From Candidatus Woesearchaeota archaeon (lineage in GTDB: Archaea > Nanobdellota > Nanobdellia > Woesearchaeales > ARS49), in the NCBI GenBank assembly GCA_037445145.1, contig JBBILB010000005.1, positions 4,820-68,819 on the forward strand: a stretch of 64,000 nucleotides of DNA. Direction: 5' to 3'. The notes below the pieces were generated by a model. The model saw only the letters and a list, made by a program, of their open reading frames with translations. It was not told the origin of the DNA and ran no database searches. Position 1 is the first letter of the stretch; each line of letters begins with the position of its first letter. A program made the translations under genes and the position numbers. Positions 4,183 through 64,000 of this stretch are shown piece by piece.

Positions 4183-5133
4183 ATGAGGCAATACGACGTT
4201 GTTATTGTTGGGGCAGGAGCTGCTGGCATGACAGCAGCCATTTACACCTGCAGGAAAAAACTCAAGACCGCCATAATCTCGGTTGACATTGGCGGCCAAA
4301 TGAACCTCACAACTTACATTGAGAACTACCCTGGCGTTAAGCCGATGGCAGGCGCAGAGCTCGTGCAGAGATTTAGGAAAAGCGCGCTCTCATTCGGCGC
4401 AGAATTCATCACAGGCAAGGTTGTCAAGGTGGAAAAAGAAGGCAACGGATTCAAATTAACCCTGTCAAATAATGATGTTTATTCTGCAAAGGCGGTTATT
4501 CTTGCCTTTGGCACTGTTCCCCGCGAGCTTGGAATTCCCGGCGAGGCCAAATTCCTTGGTCGCGGACTAAGCACTTGTGCAACCTGCGACGCGCCCCTGT
4601 ACAGGAACAAGGTCGTGGCAGTGATTGGCGGAGGAAATTCTGCCGTGGAGGGCGCCCTTGAGCTTGTCCGCGCAGGAGCAAGGCAGGTTTACGTCGTCCA
4701 CCGCAGGAAAGAGTTCCGCGGCGACGAGGTGAGTGTTGAAAAAATGAAAAAGGAAAAAGTGATCACAATAACAACCCCTTATGTTCCTGTTGAGATTGTT
4801 GGTGACAAGTTCGTGATCGGGCTCAGAATAAGGAATGTTGAGACCAATGAGGAAAAACTGCTTGCAGTAAATGGCGTTTTCAAGGAAATCGGGTATGTTG
4901 TCGATGTCAGCGCAGTGAAAGACCTTGTGAAAACCAATGAGAAGAACGAAATAATTATTGACCAAAACAATAATACGTCTGTTCCGGGCATTTTTGCAGC
5001 AGGAGATGCAACAACAGTGCCTTACAAGCAGGCTGTCATTTCAGCAGGGGAGGGCGCAAAAGCAGCATTGGAATGCTACAAGTACCTCACTGGCGCAAAA
5101 ACAGCAGGCATTGACTGGGAAAAGAGGAAGTGA
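4183..5133 (+). CDS. trxB: Thioredoxin-disulfide reductase
   Basis: FAD motif VVIVGAGAAGMTAA, redox-active CATC (TCATCDAPLY), NADPH motif GGGNSAVE, C-terminal GIFAAGD. TATA-like CTTTTTATAC about 25 nt upstream. Confidence 0.9.
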   Translation: MRQYDVVIVGAGAAGMTAAIYTCRKKLKTAIISVDIGGQMNLTTYIENYPGVKPMAGAELVQRFRKSALSFGAEFITGKVVKVEKEGNGFKLTLSNNDVYSAKAVILAFGTVPRELGIPGEAKFLGRGLSTCATCDAPLYRNKVVAVIGGGNSAVEGALELVRAGARQVYVVHRRKEFRGDEVSVEKMKKEKVITITTPYVPVEIVGDKFVIGLRIRNVETNEEKLLAVNGVFKEIGYVVDVSAVKDLVKTNEKNEIIIDQNNNTSVPGIFAAGDATTVPYKQAVISAGEGAKAALECYKYLTGAKTAGIDWEKRK

Positions 5134-5290
5134 TATCTTTTGTTTTGCGGCATTTTTCAACAGATGTTTCAAATTTAATGCCTGATTTGCCTGCGTCGGA
5201 ATCACCTGTTCGAAGCCCAATCCTCAAAATTAAGCAGTGCTTGATGATTCCGCGGAAAACTTTATATACGCACCCTGCGACGATGCCATT

Positions 5291-5719
5291 ATGCCAAATT
5301 ACAAATTCCTTGAGGGCGTAGTGACAGCAGACCTTGCATTTGAGGCAACTGGAAAAGACCTTAATGACCTTTTCACGAATGCCGCCCTTGCAGTGCTTGA
5401 GTCCCAAGCGCGGCTTGAAACAGTTGAGCCAAAAGTAACCAAGAAAGTCATGATGGAAAACGAGGACATCGGGCAGTTGCTGTTTGACTTCCTTAACGAG
5501 ATTATCTTTTTCAAGGATGCTGAACAGCTAATCTTCAGGACCGTGAAGGTTTCAATCGCCAAGAATGCAAAATACAGGCTTGTTGCAGACCTGAAAGGCG
5601 AAAAAATTAATCTCAAAAAGCACAAGCTCGGAAATGACTTAAAGGCGGTCACAATGCACATGTTTGAGGTCAAGGAAACCCCGAAGGGCTGGAAGTGCAG
5701 GGTGGTGGTTGACATATGA
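5291..5719 (+). CDS. Archease (RtcB activator/chaperone)
   Basis: YKFLEGVVTADLAFEATGKDLNDLF N-terminus and KAVTMHMFEV...WKCRVVVDI C-terminus match the archease pattern. ATGA overlap with rtcB. TATA CTTTATATAC about 25 nt upstream. Confidence 0.85.
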   Translation: MPNYKFLEGVVTADLAFEATGKDLNDLFTNAALAVLESQARLETVEPKVTKKVMMENEDIGQLLFDFLNEIIFFKDAEQLIFRTVKVSIAKNAKYRLVADLKGEKINLKKHKLGNDLKAVTMHMFEVKETPKGWKCRVVVDI

Positions 5720-7221
5720 GTTCTGAGGATGCAAGGCAGGAAGAGGTGCCGCAGCTTCCCGGTAGGCCAAGCGGACGAGCTGCCGCAGTAAAAGTAAGGG
5801 AAAACGTCTGGGACATTCCGACCACGTTCAAGCAGGGAATGCTTGTTCCCGGAAGAATTTTCGCCAGCGACAAGCTGATGAAGGAAATGGACGAACAGGT
5901 CTTTGACCAATTGACAAACGTAGCCTGCCTGCCGGGAATCGTCAAGTTCGCACACTGCATGCCAGACGCTCACTCAGGCTATGGCTTCCCTATTGGCGGT
6001 GTTGCAGCTTTTGACCCCGACCAAGGGGGAGTCATCTCGCCGGGAGGAATCGGGTTTGACATTAATTGCGGAATGCGATTAATCACAACAACGCTTACAG
6101 AAAAGGATGTCCTGCCAAAAATCAAGGAGCTTGTTGACACTCTTTTCAGCCGCGTTCCAGCAGGTGTTGGGTGCAAGGGATTTCTCAAGCTGAACAATGC
6201 GCAGTTTACAGAAGTAATGAGGGCAGGCTCAAAATGGTGCATTGAGCAGGGCTATGGGTGGGACGAGGACCTTGACCACACAGAAGACTCAGGCTGCATC
6301 CCGTGGGCAAACCCTGACAAAGTCTCAAGCAAGGCGATACAGAGGGGGATAACACAGCTCGGCACGCTTGGCTCTGGCAATCATTATCTTGAAGTTCAGG
6401 TTGCCCGTGACATTTTTGACGAAAAGTCAGCCAAAAAGTTCGGCATAACAAGCCCTGACCAGATTTGCGTGATGGTGCACTGCGGCTCAAGGGGCTTTGG
6501 GCATCAGGTTGCAACTGATTATTTGCGCACATTCCTTGGCAGGATGAAGGACTACGGCATCAGGGTGCTTGACCGCGAGCTTGCCTGCGCCCCCTTTAAC
6601 TCAAAGGAGGGTCAGGATTATTTTCAGGCAATGGCCTGCGCTGCAAATGCAGCCTTTGCAAACAGGCAGGTCATTCTTCACAGGATAAGGGAGTGCTTCT
6701 CAAAGGTCTTCAACACGCCTGCTGATGATTTGGGAATGCACTTGGTGTATGATGTTGCGCACAATATTGCAAAAGTGGAAGAACACACTGTTGATGGCAA
6801 AAAGAAAAAGCTTGTTGTGCACCGCAAGGGGGCAACGAGGTGTTTTGGTCCCAGCAGGAAAGAACTTGCACCGTTCTTCCGTGATACTGGTCAGCCGGTT
6901 ATTGTTGGCGGCTCAATGGAAACAGGCTCATTCCTACTTTTGGGCACTGACAAGGCTTTGGAAGAAACTTGGGGAAGCACTGCGCATGGCTCTGGCAGGA
7001 CTATGAGCAGGACAAAGGCAAAGCACATGGTGCGCGGAGAGCAGCTGCAGAAGGAAATGGAAAAGCGCGGCATTTACGTTCGCACAGTATCCTTCTCAGG
7101 ACTTGCAGAAGAGGCAGGGTTTGCTTACAAGTCAATCTCAGAGGTTGTTGATGTCATGCACAAGCTTGGAATAAGCAAAAAGCTGGTTGGGTTTAAGCCT
7201 TTGGGAAACGTAAAAGGATGA
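5716..7221 (+). CDS. rtcB: RNA-splicing ligase RtcB
   Basis: PDAHSGYGFPIGGV, NCGMRL, GSGNHYLEVQ, HCGSRGFGHQ and HRKGAT motifs. Confidence 0.95.
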   Translation: MSSEDARQEEVPQLPGRPSGRAAAVKVRENVWDIPTTFKQGMLVPGRIFASDKLMKEMDEQVFDQLTNVACLPGIVKFAHCMPDAHSGYGFPIGGVAAFDPDQGGVISPGGIGFDINCGMRLITTTLTEKDVLPKIKELVDTLFSRVPAGVGCKGFLKLNNAQFTEVMRAGSKWCIEQGYGWDEDLDHTEDSGCIPWANPDKVSSKAIQRGITQLGTLGSGNHYLEVQVARDIFDEKSAKKFGITSPDQICVMVHCGSRGFGHQVATDYLRTFLGRMKDYGIRVLDRELACAPFNSKEGQDYFQAMACAANAAFANRQVILHRIRECFSKVFNTPADDLGMHLVYDVAHNIAKVEEHTVDGKKKKLVVHRKGATRCFGPSRKELAPFFRDTGQPVIVGGSMETGSFLLLGTDKALEETWGSTAHGSGRTMSRTKAKHMVRGEQLQKEMEKRGIYVRTVSFSGLAEEAGFAYKSISEVVDVMHKLGISKKLVGFKPLGNVKG

Positions 7222-9476: not shown

Positions 9477-10307
9477 ATGAAAGAAATTCTTTTTGGCACA
9501 GCAGGAATACCGCACAGCACGAAAGAAGCAGGAACAATAGCAGGAATAAGGCAGGTTAAAGAGCTTGGTCTTGGAGCAATGGAGCTTGAGTTCGTGCAGA
9601 ACGTCAACATTTCTGAAAAACTGGCTCCAGAGGTCAGGAAGGTGGCAGAAGAGGAAGGAATCGTGCTTACGTGCCACGGCCAGTACTATGTGAACCTTGC
9701 ATCGCCTGAGAAGGCAAAGGTTGAGGCAAGCAAGAAAAGAATGCTCTCCGCAGCAAGAATACTCTCAAAATGCAATGGCTGGAGCATCACATGGCACCTT
9801 GCATTCTACCAGGGACAGCCAAAGGAGGTTGTGTACGAGAAAGTCAGGGATGCAATGAAAGAAGTCAGTAAAAAGCTGGCTGATGAGGGAATAACAATCT
9901 GGCTTCGGCCGGAAACAACAGGCAAGGCATCACAATGGGGCGACCTCAAGGAATGCATTCGCTTAAGCCAGGACTTGGAGAATGTCCTGCCGTGCATTGA
10001 CTTCGCTCACCTGCACGCGCGCTCAGGAAGAAAGGAAAACACTCCTGAAGAATTCAATGCCCAGCTTGCCCTGATTGAGAAAGAGCTTGGCAAGGAAGCC
10101 CTTCAAAACATGCACTGCCATGTCTCAGGCATAAATTACACAGAAAAAGGCGAAAGAAACCACCTTAACCTGCCGGACAGCGACTTGAAATACGAAGAAC
10201 TTCTCAAAGCGCTAAAGGAATTCAAGTGCAAGGGAGTAATCATTTCAGAAAGCCCGAACATTGAGGGAGATGCGTTATTGATGAAGAATGCATGGGAGAA
10301 ATTGTGA
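9477..10307 (+). CDS. Endonuclease IV-like / xylose-isomerase-like TIM-barrel protein
   Basis: CHGQYYVNLASPE, WLRPETTGK and CIDFAHLHARSG are collinear with the Nfo/AP endonuclease 2 metal-binding motifs. Confidence 0.65.
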   Translation: MKEILFGTAGIPHSTKEAGTIAGIRQVKELGLGAMELEFVQNVNISEKLAPEVRKVAEEEGIVLTCHGQYYVNLASPEKAKVEASKKRMLSAARILSKCNGWSITWHLAFYQGQPKEVVYEKVRDAMKEVSKKLADEGITIWLRPETTGKASQWGDLKECIRLSQDLENVLPCIDFAHLHARSGRKENTPEEFNAQLALIEKELGKEALQNMHCHVSGINYTEKGERNHLNLPDSDLKYEELLKALKEFKCKGVIISESPNIEGDALLMKNAWEKL

Positions 10308-14687: not shown

Positions 14688-16445
14688 ATGAAGCTTGCCG
14701 TGCCTTTTGAAATCAGAATTTTTCTTGTTGTGGTGATTGTTGGCATAATATCTGTGCTAGTAATTCTTGACACTCCAGAGCAAGAAGTTGCTTATGCTCA
14801 GATGCAAGAATATGCACAAATACGGACAACATCGCAGGTTGTTCAAGGATTGCAGCAGCCGGGCGAGCCGACAAACACTCTGGTGATTACCGGAATTGAC
14901 ATTGGGCAGGCAATCGGCTACAAGTCTCCAAGCATTACGGGAAACGAGTTTGCGTGCATGGCAGACAGGAAAATCACGACAAATGCAGGCAGGACAACAG
15001 TCAGGTACACGCTGTTGCTGCGCGACCCGACAGCAGGCGGCTTCAACGGGTGCTATATTGACTTTACCAAGAATGAGCAGGACGTCCAGGGGCTTTACAT
15101 GCACTGCCCGTCAAGCGAGGACATGCTTGCGTTCATCATAGAGTTTGAATCAGGACTCAGGAGCGAGGTTGAAAACGGCAGGCTTGAGGACTTGGAGGAA
15201 AAGGATTTGCCAATGCTTGGGGCAACATACACGATTGTGAGGGCAGAGGTAAACACAGACGACAAGACTGTTGAGTTGCGTCTTATGGGCCCGACAGGCA
15301 CGATTGACATGCGCGACCAGTATGATGACAATGAATTCAGCCATGACATAAAAGCAAACGGCAAGAATATAATGGAGGGAAGGGTGAAGATTGTTGCGGC
15401 ATATGACTGCCGCGAATTAAGCATCAGCAGGATAGAATACCGCTTCACCCCGATTGCTGTCGCGAGCGGCGACGTCTATGTTGGCGACCATCAGGGCACA
15501 AAGCAGCATTTGCGAACCCCTGAGGGGTTCTTTGGCGACTTTGACATCTTGTTTCGCGGGCTTCAGGGCAGCCTGCCAAAGACAGTGACGCCGCCGAAGA
15601 AGGCGTCTTCAGACCTTGAGACAAGCAACACAATCAAGTTTGATTCGTCAGGCGGCAACAAGTACAACATGAAGTTCACGAACAACAGGGGCCAGTATTA
15701 TAAGTTCCCGCTCGTTTATGACGCGGGAGGGCTCAAGTGGGGTGATGCGGCCAAGAACTTTGAGTTCATGGGAGGCCCGATACTGCCCCATGATTTGTTT
15801 GCTGTAACGAACGGCAACAACAAGCGCAGCATAACAAACATTGCAGAATACACCCTTATCAACATTGATGAGGGCAAGGTTTACATCAGAGACCTTGGAG
15901 GAAAAGAAGTTGCTGCGCCTTATGATGCTGCAGGCAATGGCGATGTGACTCTTGGAGGTAACCATTACAGGTTTACAGTCGTGCTTGCCCCGCCATATCC
16001 CTTGTTTATTGATCACGACGGCAATGGCGCAGTGGGCGGAACAGCAAACATTGTTACTGCAGGAGGCGCAAGGGTGATACTCAATCCCGGCTTTACGGGG
16101 CAGTTGTTCATTGACCCGTCCCTGTTTGCAGAAGGCGGTGGCCCTGAAGTCATCAGTTTTGCATTCAGCCCTGGCATCAATGTTGACATCACAGGCGGCG
16201 TGCAGATGCTTTACAATGATGCAACTGACATGTATGAGGGATTGTCAGGTTTTGGCATTTTTGTTCAGCAGACTGCGAGGAGGGACACAGGGCGCGACCT
16301 CACGTTCAACCTGCCCGGAGCACAGCTTGGCGCAAAGGCCAAGGTTGCAGCACCTGTCCCGAGCGTTGGCGGACAGGCGCAGGGCGAGGTGCTTGTGACG
16401 TGCGAACGGTCTGAATTCGTCAAGAAAGCCCAGGCAGCACAATAA
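14688..16445 (+). CDS. Membrane-anchored/secreted cell-surface protein (possible S-layer-like)
   Basis: ATG preceded by AGAGGTG. N-terminal hydrophobic anchor (IRIFLVVVIVGIISVLVIL), then about 550 aa of beta-rich, Gly/Thr/Asp-rich sequence. No family recognised. Confidence 0.65.
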   Translation: MKLAVPFEIRIFLVVVIVGIISVLVILDTPEQEVAYAQMQEYAQIRTTSQVVQGLQQPGEPTNTLVITGIDIGQAIGYKSPSITGNEFACMADRKITTNAGRTTVRYTLLLRDPTAGGFNGCYIDFTKNEQDVQGLYMHCPSSEDMLAFIIEFESGLRSEVENGRLEDLEEKDLPMLGATYTIVRAEVNTDDKTVELRLMGPTGTIDMRDQYDDNEFSHDIKANGKNIMEGRVKIVAAYDCRELSISRIEYRFTPIAVASGDVYVGDHQGTKQHLRTPEGFFGDFDILFRGLQGSLPKTVTPPKKASSDLETSNTIKFDSSGGNKYNMKFTNNRGQYYKFPLVYDAGGLKWGDAAKNFEFMGGPILPHDLFAVTNGNNKRSITNIAEYTLINIDEGKVYIRDLGGKEVAAPYDAAGNGDVTLGGNHYRFTVVLAPPYPLFIDHDGNGAVGGTANIVTAGGARVILNPGFTGQLFIDPSLFAEGGGPEVISFAFSPGINVDITGGVQMLYNDATDMYEGLSGFGIFVQQTARRDTGRDLTFNLPGAQLGAKAKVAAPVPSVGGQAQGEVLVTCERSEFVKKAQAAQ

Positions 16446-21576: not shown

Positions 21577-22203
21577 CTAAGAACTCGACGGAGGAGGCAG
21601 GTAGTCGCGCAGCCTTACCTTGAACTGGGATTCTATGCGTGAGAAATGGATTATCATTTCCTTGTATTTGGGGTAATTTGCAGCCAGCGTGTCCCATCTT
21701 GACTCGCCGGATTTCAAAAGCAGGGCATGTCCTTCAATCGGCAGGGCCTTAACATACTGCCTGATTTCATTGTCATCAGGAGCATAAAAACTCAATGCCT
21801 TTTCCCTTATTAAGGGCATCTCCCGGTATGGCTGCTGTTTCAGCTCGTTGAGGAAAGCCATTCTGCGCTCCTTTGTCTTTTCAGGAGTAAGTGCATAAAC
21901 AAGTGCAACAGCCTCGGGAAGCGCCTCGATGTGGTTCGCTTTTGGAGGCTCCCCTGCAATGGCGGGCGTTGCCTCAGGCGGTGCTGCAAGGGCAAGTACT
22001 GCCTCAAGGGTCAGCTTTGTTGTATCGTAGTCAAGGTTTGACTTGTGCGCATTTTCAAGAACAGCCTGTGCAAAGCCAAGATTTCTTCTTTCTGCAAGGC
22101 GGTGGTAAAGATTGCAAAAATCCAACGCTGCAACAAGCCGTGCATCTGAGCCATTTAAGTCCTTTTGTCCTTCAGCAGAAGATTCGTACATACTTGTCTT
22201 CAC
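21577..22203 (-). CDS. Hypothetical protein (208 aa), co-directional with the kinase-fold gene
   Basis: GTG start (alternative ATG at 22191). 16-49 nt from the downstream gene. No family recognised. Confidence 0.5.
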   Translation of the reverse strand: MKTSMYESSAEGQKDLNGSDARLVAALDFCNLYHRLAERRNLGFAQAVLENAHKSNLDYDTTKLTLEAVLALAAPPEATPAIAGEPPKANHIEALPEAVALVYALTPEKTKERRMAFLNELKQQPYREMPLIREKALSFYAPDDNEIRQYVKALPIEGHALLLKSGESRWDTLAANYPKYKEMIIHFSRIESQFKVRLRDYLPPPSSS

Positions 22204-58291: not shown

Positions 58292-58320
58292 AATTATTCG
58301 TTGAAGACTAAATCTCGATG

Positions 58321-58360
58321 GCGCCGCGCCTGAGCTCTGCTCAGTCACGGACCGCGGCGC
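58321..58360 (+). repeat. GC-rich structured repeat, truncated copy (copy 1, 40 nt)
   Basis: GCGCCGCG-CCTGAGCTCTGCTCAGTCACGGAC-CGCGGCGC. It shares the 8-bp terminal inverted repeat and first hairpin with copies 2 and 3. It lies between convergent genes. Confidence 0.7.
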
Positions 58361-58410
58361 ATAAAGAAAAGTTTATTTTAGAATAGAAATAAAAAAAACA
58401 ATAAAAAATT

Positions 58411-60181: not shown

Positions 60182-60249
60182 ATACCTGCACAGAATAAGG
60201 TTGTTTTAAAAAACTTTCCACGTAGAGGTCATGTTGCATCACAATCACT

Positions 60250-60345
60250 GCGCCGCGGTCGTGCTCTCGCACGACTCAATTTGTCTCCCCTGTGCTGGAT
60301 CAAGGGGAGACAAATTGACCTGAACTAATGGTTCAGGCGCGGCGC
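60250..60345 (-). repeat. GC-rich structured repeat, full copy (copy 2, 96 nt, minus orientation)
   Basis: The reverse complement aligns end to end with copy 3. Closing stem GCGCCGCG/CGCGGCGC, H1 CCTGAAC-CATTA-GTTCAGG, H2 TCAATTTGTCTCCCC-N13-GGGGAGACAAATTGA, H3 GTCGTGC-GAGA-GCACGAC. Confidence 0.8.
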
Positions 60346-60420
60346 TGGACAAGAAGCCTGACGACGTTCAAGCACACATTTTATAAACAACTGCTTATTG
60401 CAGTCTGTAAGGGGGAGTAT

Positions 60421-60729: not shown

Positions 60730-61886
60730 TGCTTGACAAATACTCAAAGTATGACAAGGCAATGCTTTTGCTTGTTGCTGTTGTTTTTGTCGCGCATTTA
60801 TTGATAATCGCGACGCCTCTCAAAGGATATGTTTTTGACGAGGCGCACTATGTCCCGTCTGCAAAATGCATGCTTAATGGCACCGTTTGCAATGTTGAGC
60901 ACCCGCCGTTGTCAAAGGCAATGATTGCGTTTGGAATAAGGATGTTTGGAGACAATGGCATTGGGTGGCGTTTGCCGACAATAATTGCAGGAACATTATC
61001 TATCGTTGTTGTTTACGTTCTTGTCCGGCGCTTGCGCGATGAAAAAACAGCGCTTATTGCTGCTTTTTTGCTTTCGTTTGAGTCATTGTGGTTCACTCAT
61101 TCATCTATTGCTTTGCTTGACATTATTGCAGTATTTTTTGCAATTCTTGGTATTTACCTTTTTATTTGCAACAAAAGAATATTGTCAGGGATTGCGTTTG
61201 GGCTTGGGTTGTTGTCAAAAGAGACTGTTTTGTTAGTGATTCCTGCGCTTGTTCTTTATGCTGCATTTTCGCAGCCAAAAATCTGGTCAAAAGATGCTTT
61301 GAAGGCGGCGTTAAAGGTTTGCTTGTCTGTCGGCTTGACTGCAATAATAGTTTTCCTTGTTGGATTGAATGCTTATGACGTGACTTATGACGCTTTCCCA
61401 ACGCCTTTCCACCACATTGCCCGCATGGTCAGGCACAATCAGGCAATTGAGGCGCCAAGGTTTTCTGATGTCACTCACCCATTAAGGTGGTTTTCTGGGT
61501 TTATTCCAGACCCGTATTTTCTGACAACAGTCCGTGTTGGCGAGCACAAGCGGTCTTTTGCGCAGTATTATTCCCAGCCAAACCTTGTTGTTTTGCTAAT
61601 AATCTGGCTTGCATTGCCGTATGCTCTTGCGAATGCCTGGAAAAAAGAGCCTCTTGAATTATTGAACCTGCTTGTTGTGGCTGTTGTGTTTGGAGCTTAT
61701 GTTGTTCTTGCGTCTGCCAGGATAACTTACCCGTTTTACATGCTGTTGTTCTTGCCCAGCTTGTGCATTATCAACGCAACTTTCCTTGCACGGCTCCAAA
61801 AACCAGTCCTGATATGCTATTGTCTTGGTGTGCTTGCCTGGTTTATCTTCTGGTTCCCGAGAAACATATTCACGATAGGAATGTAA
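60729..61886 (+). CDS. PMT/ArnT-like GT-C (dolichyl-phosphate-mannose-protein mannosyltransferase family)
   Basis: Loop-1 acidic motif YVFDEAHYVPSA (the DE motif of GT39/GT83 enzymes). About 10 TM segments. Confidence 0.75.
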   Translation: MLDKYSKYDKAMLLLVAVVFVAHLLIIATPLKGYVFDEAHYVPSAKCMLNGTVCNVEHPPLSKAMIAFGIRMFGDNGIGWRLPTIIAGTLSIVVVYVLVRRLRDEKTALIAAFLLSFESLWFTHSSIALLDIIAVFFAILGIYLFICNKRILSGIAFGLGLLSKETVLLVIPALVLYAAFSQPKIWSKDALKAALKVCLSVGLTAIIVFLVGLNAYDVTYDAFPTPFHHIARMVRHNQAIEAPRFSDVTHPLRWFSGFIPDPYFLTTVRVGEHKRSFAQYYSQPNLVVLLIIWLALPYALANAWKKEPLELLNLLVVAVVFGAYVVLASARITYPFYMLLFLPSLCIINATFLARLQKPVLICYCLGVLAWFIFWFPRNIFTIGM

Positions 61887-61936
61887 AATGGGCAAAATAC
61901 GATTATCACGAGGTGTGTTGCAAGATTTCATGTCAA

Positions 61937-62031
61937 GCGCCGCGCCTGAACCGATAGTTCAGGTTGTTTTGTCTCCCCCTGACTCAGCGCAGGGGAGACA
62001 AAACAAGTCCCGCGCAACGGGACCGCGGCGC
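61937..62031 (+). repeat. GC-rich structured repeat, full copy (copy 3, 95 nt)
   Basis: GCGCCGCG | CCTGAAC-CGATA-GTTCAGG | TTGTTTTGTCTCCCC-N13-GGGGAGACAAAACAA | GTCCCG-CGCAA-CGGGAC | CGCGGCGC. Every nucleotide outside the loops is paired. Confidence 0.8.
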
Positions 62032-62131
62032 ATTGCGGGCTTTATAACAAATACCGCGGTCGGCTTGCCACAGCACGAAAACAGGACCAGAGCGGCGTTT
62101 CAGACAAACAAGTCGTCTACAGGTGCATAAA

Positions 62132-62506
62132 ATGAGGAAAAAAGGTCTTCCAATACTTGCCGCAATGGGCATTGTTGTCTTGTGCACTTTATTGACTTCT
62201 TCCGGCAAGGTTTTGTGGAAGTTTGGCGCGAACAACTGGCCATTGTTCCCTGCCATTTATCAGGTGATTGGCGGGTTTATACTGCACGCAATTGCTGCTG
62301 CTGTCCTGATTTATTTGTTCAAGAAAGGCGAGGTTTCAATACTTTTTCCTGTTTTTGCCACAAACTACATCTGGGTCAATGTTTTTGCTTACATTTTCTT
62401 CCACGAATCATTTACTGTGCTTAAATGGGCAGGCATTGCGTGCATCATTGCGGGCTCTATAATCCTTAGCAGGGGCTCTCACAAGCACAGGGCGGTGGTC
62501 GGATGA
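62132..62506 (+). CDS. 4-TM EamA/SMR-like half-transporter (ArnE/ArnF-like lipid-linked sugar flippase subunit)
   Basis: 124 aa, four hydrophobic segments, ...LKWAGIACIIAGSIIL C-terminal motif. ATGA overlap with its paralogue. The ORF-track GTG start is at 62123. Confidence 0.65.
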   Translation: MRKKGLPILAAMGIVVLCTLLTSSGKVLWKFGANNWPLFPAIYQVIGGFILHAIAAAVLIYLFKKGEVSILFPVFATNYIWVNVFAYIFFHESFTVLKWAGIACIIAGSIILSRGSHKHRAVVG

Positions 62507-63554: not shown

Positions 63555-64000
63555 TTATAGAATTCCTTGCTTTTTCAGGCGCTTGCGCAGTGCGAGCAGA
63601 GTGCGCATTATTTTATTGACGGTATTAATAATGCGCACTCTGCTTGTTCTTTGGCTTTCTGTCCACTTCACCGGAATTTGGGCTATTGGATAGCCTTGTT
63701 TTTCTGCGAGAATAAGCAGTTCTGAATCAAAAAACCAGGAAGGGTCTTGTATTTGCGGAAGCAGTTCTTTTTTTGCTTTTTTGCTTATTGCCTTGAAACC
63801 GCACTGCAGGTCTTTAATTCTTGTTTTTACAATCAGTTTTGCTATTGTATTGTATCCTTTTGACAAGATTGTCCTGTTCAAATCACGCCTGACTGTGGAA
63901 TGCCTGTCAAACCTGTTTCCTGTTGCAACTGCTGCACCTTGCTTTATTGCGCTAATCATTCTGGGCAGTGCATTAAGGTCTGTTGCAAGGTCTGCATCCA
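63555..64000 (-). CDS. Second GT2-family glycosyltransferase, 5'-truncated by the window end
   Basis: The reading frame stays open upstream of the ORF-track Met to the window edge (..DADLATDLNALPRMISAIKQG, DxD motif). Also QCGFKAISKK and FFDSELLILAEKQGY. Confidence 0.65.
   Translation of the reverse strand, partial: DADLATDLNALPRMISAIKQGAAVATGNRFDRHSTVRRDLNRTILSKGYNTIAKLIVKTRIKDLQCGFKAISKKAKKELLPQIQDPSWFFDSELLILAEKQGYPIAQIPVKWTESQRTSRVRIINTVNKIMRTLLALRKRLKKQGIL

Follow-up and report, generated by a model that had tools for sequence, protein, structure and literature searches.

The locus examined here raises the question of what a short, GC-rich sequence with a perfect cloverleaf fold is doing between two genes of an archaeal operon. 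The sequence lies in a 64-kb stretch of Woesearchaeota DNA that was analyzed as a whole (hereafter, the window). The original prediction offered three candidates for its nature: a structured non-coding RNA (ncRNA), a cis-regulatory RNA or DNA cruciform, or a miniature mobile or recombination element. Comparison of the sequence with its further copies, and with the orthologous loci of related genomes, leads us to consider it on balance probable that the copies form a family of non-autonomous, MITE/REP-like mobile DNA elements in a subgroup of the Woesearchaeota (DPANN). The family is small and previously undescribed, and its members are GC-rich nested-palindrome repeats in the intergenic spacers of a few Woesearchaeota genomes.

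The genomes of DPANN archaea are tiny and compact, and apart from what automated censuses provide, there is almost no description of the mobile DNA in them. One census found a very high density of MITEs in a Woesearchaeal genome (PMC11602168), and a generic survey of REPs does not cover DPANN (PMC12306157). Our own searches of Rfam and the literature returned no described repeat family of this four-way-junction form.

Sequence and Fold of the First Copy

The sequence that drew attention to the locus (copy 1) was as originally described. It reads GCGCCGCG / CCTGAAC-CGATA-GTTCAGG / TTGTTTTGTCTCCCC-13 nt-GGGGAGACAAAACAA / GTCCCG-CGCAA-CGGGAC / CGCGGCGC, then A, and its four stems (S1–S4, Table 1) contribute 36 Watson-Crick pairs and leave no unpaired base at the junction. 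Since the terminal inverted repeat (TIR) that forms S1 encloses three hairpins, a single strand of either polarity, whether RNA or DNA, folds into the same perfect four-way junction. RNAfold returned this junction as both the MFE and the centroid structure, at −60.6 kcal/mol for the plus strand and −64.5 for the minus strand. The corresponding z-scores were −9.2 and −8.4, with none of 200 dinucleotide shuffles as stable, and with DNA parameters the fold was identical at a z of about −10 on both strands. When the whole 64 kb was scanned in sliding 100-nt segments (mean −23.2 ± 6.0), the two most stable were those of copy 1 (−57.4) and of a second copy described below (60251–60350, −61.8). The next most stable segments in that scan were at 16311–16410 (third-ranked, −49.3), 21911–22010 (−48.4), and 4621–4720 (−46.1 kcal/mol).

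The predicted contrast in base composition with the surroundings was also borne out, copy 1 having a GC content of 0.62 versus ~0.44–0.45 in the flanking kilobases. The TATA-like TTTATAA expected downstream is present at 62041–62047, 9 nt past the element and within its right flank, and the genes that follow code for a pair of small membrane proteins of the EamA type and for a GT2 glycosyltransferase. The TATA-like box is absent at that position in the other copies and is, therefore, not a feature of the family.

Searches for known RNAs gave no family for the element. Rfam 15 had no match in the window at the gathering threshold, and at E ≤ 10 it produced generic hairpin noise only (e.g., mir-2300 at 22.8 bits versus a gathering score of 90). 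The likeness to tRNA is one of shape only: ARAGORN found no tRNA genes in the 64-kb window, no Rfam tRNA match appeared at E ≤ 10, and the element, with stems of 8, 7, 15, and 6 bp and no nucleotides at its junction, has neither a 7-bp acceptor stem nor D-loop or T-loop motifs.

Further Copies of the Element

A mismatch-tolerant search of the window uncovered copy 2, which reads GCGCCGCG CCTGAAC CATTA GTTCAGG TCAATTTGTCTCCCCT TGATCCAGCAC AGGGGAGACAAATTGA GTCGTGC GAGA GCACGAC CGCGGCGC. Its S1 and S2 are identical to those of copy 1, whereas S4 carries a GAGA tetraloop and fully compensated pair changes have taken place at three positions at the outer end of S3 and at two in S4. A third, much shorter copy (the mini copy) retains S1, S2 (CTGAGC/GCTCAG, with an A-T pair compensated to G-C), and GGAC, a remnant of the 3′ arm of S4, but has lost S3 and the 5′ arm of S4.

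As had been suggested at the outset, a covariance model (R1) was built from the copies, namely copies 1 and 2, and it was run over the window and over 120 JGI metagenome loci that matched an end-anchored pattern comprising the two ends of the element. Two more true copies were found among these loci, one in L014 (also present in L133, a twin assembly of the same locus) and one in L080. The other 118 were chance matches, mostly from bacteria of at least 60% GC. The family, thus, comprises five loci in three genomes, with three copies in the window and one in each of the other two genomes. Judging from ProRS and GlyRS homologues, the window and L014 belong to the Woesearchaeota, and the GC content of L080 is likewise low (0.44). 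The copies range from 40 to 97 nt and contain no gene-sized ORF. Those in the window are clustered within 3.7 kb, and the overall abundance was five loci in the ~294 kb of Woesearchaeota DNA examined, with no element in ~230 kb from relatives.

Table 1. Positions of the element copies, of their stems, and of the sites into which they are inserted (window coordinates unless an accession is given).
Feature	Position	Strand	Details
Copy 1, full-length core, 95 nt	61937..62031	+	Identified by fold; model R1, 124 bits
Copy 1, S1	61937–44/62024–31		8 bp
Copy 1, S2	61945–51/61957–63		7 bp; loop CGATA
Copy 1, S3	61964–78/61992–62006		15 bp; 13-nt loop
Copy 1, S4	62007–12/62018–23		6 bp; loop CGCAA; A after the element
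Left direct repeat of copy 1	61884..61897	+	TAAAATGGGCAAAA; PMT stop codon and relic of EamA start
Inserted block 1, ~230 nt	61898..62127	+	39-nt left flank, core, 96-nt right flank; from alignment
Right flank of copy 1	62032..62127	+	Unstructured (z = −0.15); includes TTTATAA
Right direct repeat of copy 1	62128..62141	+	TAAAATGAGGAAAA; functional EamA start ATG at 62132–62134
Copy 2, full-length core, 96 nt	60250..60345	−	R1, 126.7 bits; DNA fold z = −14
Inserted block 2, 146 nt	60222..60367	−	Between divergent promoters TTTATAAAA (103-aa gene) and TGGAAAGTTTTTTAAAA (ProRS)
Mini copy, 40 nt, internal deletion	58321..58360	+	blastn-short; R1 with filters off, 16.4 bits, E = 0.01
Expanded 119-nt spacer with mini copy	58292..58410	.	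Convergent genes; possible 8–11-nt direct repeat TAGTTTAGAAT / TATTTTAGAAT
L014 copy	FWPU01000275.1		R1, 86.8 bits; L133 is a twin assembly of the same locus
L080 copy	Ga0184639_10155190		R1, 50.7 bits

The genome of the window may contain additional near-identical copies in other places. This is hinted at by an independent Logan assembly of the same organism (L005:1-84, SRR11582170_54465), which ends within the loop that closes hairpin S2 of copy 2, a break of the kind expected for a repeat. Other searches were unproductive. A scan of JGI metagenomes with a pattern of S2 and S3 had no matches, and exact-pattern scans of viral contigs gave no true match, the sole match (L140) failing model R1. 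An exact-pattern scan of GTDB species genomes gave four chance matches to the first hairpin only, and a protein query with the element ORF, meant to reveal other copies miscalled as genes, yielded no candidate.

Two palindromes encountered in these searches were rejected as family members. A match to R1 in L046 (L046:5251-5336, Ga0265314_10005887), a GC-rich bacterial contig, is an unrelated nested palindrome directly past a stop codon. It has the same A-B-B′-C-C′-D-D′-A′ layout as the archaeal element and scores 43.9 bits from structure alone, but, unlike the archaeal element, can also form one long hairpin (−59.5 kcal/mol). Within the window, a perfect 21-bp hairpin (CGAGCAGAGTGCGCATTATT ... 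AATAATGCGCACTCTGCTTG, 14-nt loop) is located at 63592–63647, at the 3′ end of a minus-strand GT2-like ORF (63555–63959). This is a single hairpin of different sequence (R1 12.3 bits, E = 0.09).

Insertion Sites and Empty Sites

The loci used for comparison came from relatives with 86–91% identical ProRS (L006–L012) or GlyRS (L134–L139). All four insertions that could be tested, i.e., the three window copies and that of L014, were absent from the orthologous loci, with empty sites seen in four to five relatives (e.g., ...ATGTAAAATGGGGAAAAAAGG...). The PMT stop and EamA start codons are 1 nt apart in relatives versus 245 nt in the window, where copy 1 lies between them. The spacer containing the divergent promoters of the 103-aa gene and ProRS is ~97 nt in relatives versus 238 nt with copy 2, and at the insertion point itself, 4 nt in relatives correspond to a 146-nt block, with the flanking promoters aligning perfectly on both sides. 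The convergent spacer that holds the mini copy measures 18–36 nt in relatives versus 119 nt. Similarly, the upstream stop and the GlyRS promoter are separated in relatives by 33–62 nt without the element, versus an element-bearing unit of ~165 nt in L133.

Copy 1 provides the clearest insertion. The ancestral TAAAATGGGGAAAA is present as a single copy in L006 and L007, whereas in the window it occurs on both sides of the ~230-nt insert, and the empty sites, thus, show a 14-nt target duplication. Because these 14 nt were duplicated, the upstream stop and the downstream start both survive, and the insertion split an operon at a stop/start junction without damage to either gene. Taken one by one, the flanking direct repeats are statistically marginal. 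The 12-nt repeat of L014 had a p of 0.014, versus 0.06 for copy 1 and 0.07 for the mini copy, and those of copy 2 and L080 were not significant; taken jointly over the five copies, the Fisher combined p was 0.005. Repeat lengths vary (about 4–6(?), 8–11, 12, and 14 nt), and in three copies the repeat is separated from the core by 22–39 nt on the left and 28–96 nt on the right, these flanks being barely homologous between copies. Pieces of the element are partially matched at three places in the right flank of copy 1 (p = 0.002–0.02), which probably consists of decayed element debris, as found in mosaic REP clusters. The five left flanks differ (..TCAA, ..TCCA, ..GATG, ..TGCT, and ..GAGG) and share no common target. 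Outer TIRs beyond the core were also considered as a family feature and rejected, since only L014 has one (AATTGGT/ACCAATT) and the other copies are without.

Variable flanking repeats (8–14 nt), A/T-rich targets, extra non-homologous nucleotides between repeat and core, an internally deleted copy, and a cloverleaf shape could also describe an RNA-mediated, SINE-like retroposed element, in which a tRNA-shaped RNA is copied back into A/T-rich targets. We regard this as highly improbable. Neither the window nor the examined loci encode a reverse transcriptase, and the copies lack G-U pairs, sequence signatures of tRNA, and any 3′ tail, A-rich or otherwise. SINE-like elements are, to our knowledge, not known from prokaryotes.

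Both copy 2 and the copy of L014 were found ~30 nt upstream of near-identical promoters (TGGAAAGTTTTTTAA(A/G)CAACC), those of ProRS and GlyRS, respectively, in opposite orientations. The two promoters (ProRS, 60204–60221; GlyRS, L014 1392–1412, which equals L133 ~9970–9990) belong to two different Woesearchaeota, have an ATG ~22–24 nt downstream, and are of the leaderless type, and in both the element is inserted just upstream of the BRE. This placement of two of the four full copies, together with the cloverleaf outline, is what could recommend the idea that the element is a tRNA, a tRNA pseudogene, or a tRNA-mimic regulator of the adjoining aminoacyl-tRNA synthetase genes. That idea is scarcely credible, and is effectively refuted by the orientation of the copies, by their position, and by their absence in orthologues: relative to the synthetase genes, the two copies face opposite ways, both are located upstream of the promoters and outside the transcripts, and orthologous synthetase genes are without the element. 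The remaining copies are beside unrelated genes. In our reading, the placement reflects a preference for targets close to promoters and not regulation by a tRNA mimic.

The copy of L133 has a different kind of neighbor. Its unit is bracketed by ACTTTCTGGGAA / ACTTTCTGGAAA and sits between the last gene of a Liv-transporter block and the GlyRS TATA box. The block (L133:1989-9787, ~8 kb) encodes a Liv-type ABC transporter with its substrate-binding protein, AlaE, a TrmB-family regulator, and a nucleotidyltransferase; it is missing in L134–L137 and L139, is shorter and rearranged in L138, and has the same GC content as its surroundings. The element, thus, lies exactly at the edge of a block that relatives lack between RFC and GlyRS. 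The window copies, in turn, are in a neighborhood of glycosylation genes whose order differs in an 86% relative, and a perfect four-way junction without unpaired bases has the geometry of a Holliday junction on both strands. These observations would suit a recombination or integration signal (att-like, a Holliday-junction-like cruciform, or a hotspot for a structure-specific nuclease) that marks the junctions of gained or rearranged gene blocks. Such a role seems very unlikely to us, as the genes between the window copies are syntenic with those of element-free relatives, which means that no cassette was acquired at that place. A copy is missing from the other edge of the L133 block, and L138 has a related Liv block without the element. 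In addition, neither the window nor the L133 locus has a gene for an integrase or recombinase near the element, which also lacks the hallmarks of attC sites (extrahelical bases and a single hairpin with R″/R′ core sites at its base).

Conservation of Pairing

With stems registered by hand, all 160 of the 160 pairs across the five copies were Watson-Crick pairs, with no G-U pair and no mismatch. Irregularities were confined to one bulged G in S1 of L014 and, in L080, to an S4 of only 3 bp and an S3 with a terminal C/A and a single bulged A. RNAalifold of the four full copies gave 36 pairs, of which nine had double compensatory changes, and there were essentially no one-sided changes. Stem-disrupting substitutions in further copies, named at the outset as evidence against the proposal, were not seen; the substitutions were compensatory instead. 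The terminal inverted repeats GCGCCGCG / CGCGGCGC are kept in four of five copies and are compensated to TCGCCGCG / CGCGGCGA in L080. S1, S2, and the inner part of S3 are nearly invariant in sequence while the loops diverge freely (e.g., loop 2 occurs as CGATA, CATTA, CTTTG, ACA, and TCT), and loop 3 is barely alignable.

Functional RNAs usually conserve loop and junction nucleotides. Conserved stems with free loops and no junction bases are the reverse of this usual pattern; they fit a structure that is read as DNA, or palindromes that are held perfect by arm-to-arm templating. The near-invariance of S1, S2, and inner S3 beside freely changing loops is the pattern of a DNA element recognized by protein, not of an RNA with functional loops.

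The principal alternative is, nevertheless, an ncRNA, i.e., a small RNA gene or a cis-acting module in leaders, spacers, or 3′ ends that has been duplicated with the junction as its functional unit, and that could act as an mRNA stabilizer, a processing site, or a protein-binding scaffold. The very strong folding and the compensatory helix changes are as expected of such an RNA, and S4 of copy 2 and of L014 is closed by a GNRA tetraloop (GAGA and GGGA, respectively). Four of the five copies are sense to an adjoining co-directional gene: copy 1 is part of an operon transcript, the mini copy occupies a 3′ UTR position ahead of a T-rich tract, and the L080 copy is between a TATA-like box and an SD/ATG. 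An A/T-rich TATA-like motif is found 28–47 nt upstream of every full copy; however, these motifs are outside the repeat and represent target sequence or promoters of the host that were already in place. Both genes that adjoin the L014 copy are antisense to it, and a nearby TATA has its BRE oriented away from it. The complete lack of G-U pairs, the equal folding of the two strands, the unconserved loops, and the empty junction all count against an RNA, as does the lack of an Rfam match even at E ≤ 10, and absence at the same genes in close relatives means that the element is dispensable. Weighing these points, we judge an ncRNA to be unlikely.

A separate observation was made in L080, where the 23 nt that lie to the right of the copy (793–815, CTTTAAGAGGAGAGAAAAACATG) carry both the SD and the start codon for the ORF that follows, and repeat the copy's own S3 3′ arm (TTAAGGGGGAGAAAAA). 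None of 200 shuffles scored as well. The repeat may be a partial duplication or an alternative pairing partner for the S3 5′ arm, and alternative pairing of this kind is conceivable for an RNA.

Comparison with Known Repeats

Prokaryotic MITEs and REP/BIME sequences are the nearest known kinds. Among the MITEs we compared the element with Correia/NEMIS of Neisseria, ERIC/IRU, RUP, bcr1 of the Bacillus cereus group, and the MITEs of Sulfolobus and haloarchaea. Like these, it is small, non-coding, intergenic, and multi-copy, it has TIRs, and it is present or absent between close relatives; it also has an internal-deletion derivative, stable hairpins, and a target duplication at at least one site. 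It differs in that its TIRs are only 8 bp and enclose three independent perfect hairpins in place of one long imperfect hairpin, in that there is no known parent IS and the copy number is very low, and in its direct repeats. MITEs have target duplications of fixed length that abut the termini, whereas the direct repeats of the element are 14 nt in copy 1, 12 nt in L014, and 8–11 nt in the mini copy, with gaps of 22–96 nt to the core in three copies.

A likeness to REP, BIME, and REPIN sequences is also evident, as the element is a GC-rich extragenic palindrome located in AT-poorer spacers, at gene ends, and between convergent genes, has mosaic or decayed neighbors, and maintains its stems by compensation. 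REP structures are recognized as single-stranded DNA. REPs are, however, known from bacteria, consist of single imperfect hairpins of 20–40 nt with a conserved 5′ tetranucleotide, and occur in hundreds of copies. They insert without target duplication and are mobilized by RAYT, an IS200/IS605-like Y1 HUH enzyme, and no RAYT was seen in the window. With four helices, 95 nt, no conserved 5′ tetranucleotide, and a low copy number, the element does not belong to the REP/REPIN-RAYT systems. Nor does it belong to the PATE or omega-RNA regions derived from IS200/IS605. Those have subterminal hairpins, no TIR, and no target duplication, and are inserted 3′ of a fixed 4–5-nt target, whereas copy 1 has a target duplication, the left flanks have no common target, and the window has no TnpA or TnpB gene.

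The nested layout recalls the ITRs of AAV and other parvoviruses (A-B-B′-C-C′-A′), in which an outer palindrome surrounds smaller perfect ones and a branched junction with hardly any unpaired base can form on either strand. The AAV ITRs form three-way junctions at the ends of a linear ssDNA genome and have Rep-binding and nicking sites; the element has one more arm (A-B-B′-C-C′-D-D′-A′), is four-way, resides in a cellular chromosome, and has no associated genes. An AAV-like flip/flop inversion of its loops was rejected by inspection, the loop sequences not being reverse complements of each other.

The attC sites of integrons, reported also in archaeal MAGs, are structured single-strand sites of 57–141 nt at cassette boundaries, and their structure is more conserved than their sequence. 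In these respects they are like the element. They differ in being one imperfect hairpin with obligatory extrahelical bases and R″/R′ core sites at its base, beside an IntI integron. The stems of the element are perfect, its CCTGAAC/GTTCAGG is a 7-bp hairpin with a 5-nt loop and not the base of a site, the window has no integrase, and the genes between the copies are syntenic housekeeping genes. The element is, therefore, not an attC site.

A Probable Non-Autonomous Mobile Element

Of the original three candidates, the mobile or recombination element is the one favored by the results, which comprise multiple copies, insertions that are absent at orthologous sites, a derivative with an internal deletion, duplication of the target sequence at copy 1, and stems that have evolved by compensation. 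For the ncRNA candidate there remain the GNRA loops of two copies. We infer that mobility is the cause of this combination, and the mini copy is consistent with it, having kept both termini and lost its interior as the derivatives of MITEs do. The conserved unit is an ~8-bp GC-rich TIR (GCGCCGCG...CGCGGCGC) around three hairpins, with ~14 nt of a less conserved 5′ flank apparently traveling with it (10 of the 14 nt immediately 5′ of the core are identical between copies 1 and 2). The copies were inserted into intergenic spacers, whether beside promoters, at a stop/start junction, or between convergent genes, and leave the neighboring genes intact. The perfect Watson-Crick hairpins suggest that it is as DNA that the structure is under constraint. 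A putative mobilizing enzyme may recognize a single-stranded or cruciform intermediate, or the palindromes may be corrected by templating from one arm to the other.

Several results argue against mobility. Our Pfam search of the ~39 ORFs of the 64-kb window detected no gene for a transposase, integrase, HUH nuclease, Cas1, or reverse transcriptase, nor any Y1/HUH, TnpA, or TnpB gene, and the compared loci of relatives and of L133 likewise had no transposase, integrase, HUH nuclease, Cas1, or reverse transcriptase; the element has no known autonomous partner. Direct repeats that vary in length and do not abut the core in three copies are unlike those of a simple cut-and-paste MITE of the DDE type. 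The copy number is low, the clustering of the window copies within 3.7 kb could point to a local function, and the two GNRA tetraloops are compatible with an RNA.

A more specific mechanism can be envisaged, in which the element represents a new kind of archaeal mobile element that moves via a self-folded, single-stranded four-way junction mimicking a Holliday junction, and depends on junction-processing and repair enzymes of the host, or on copying of a structured RNA, and not on a dedicated DDE transposase. Such a mechanism would explain the perfect pairing on both strands, the variable target duplications with filler DNA, and the absence of a partner gene in the reduced genomes of DPANN. 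We consider it quite unlikely, and put it forward as speculation.

Small palindromic intergenic repeats are a familiar class, and what sets this family apart is its architecture, with three perfect hairpins closed by a TIR, no unpaired junction base, and no wobble pairs, together with the clean evolutionary evidence. The family is a concrete and easily recognized marker of recent insertion in the Woesearchaeota. If the mobilizing machinery reads the structure, the element would be a natural substrate for studies of how archaea recognize cruciforms and Holliday junctions; if it is an RNA instead, it would be a new RNA class with good covariation support. Either way, the family explains assembly breaks and inflated spacers in these MAGs.

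Other Features of the Window

During our studies of the element, we noted two other features of the window. The RtcB tRNA-splicing ligase and archease genes adjoin one another at 5237–7221. In addition, a giant ORF of 8471 aa occupies 40% of the window (31627–57042, minus strand), with a strongly negative AT skew across its length. In related genomes, ORFs of 2862–9445 aa occupy the corresponding position, beside the 84-aa gene and ProRS.
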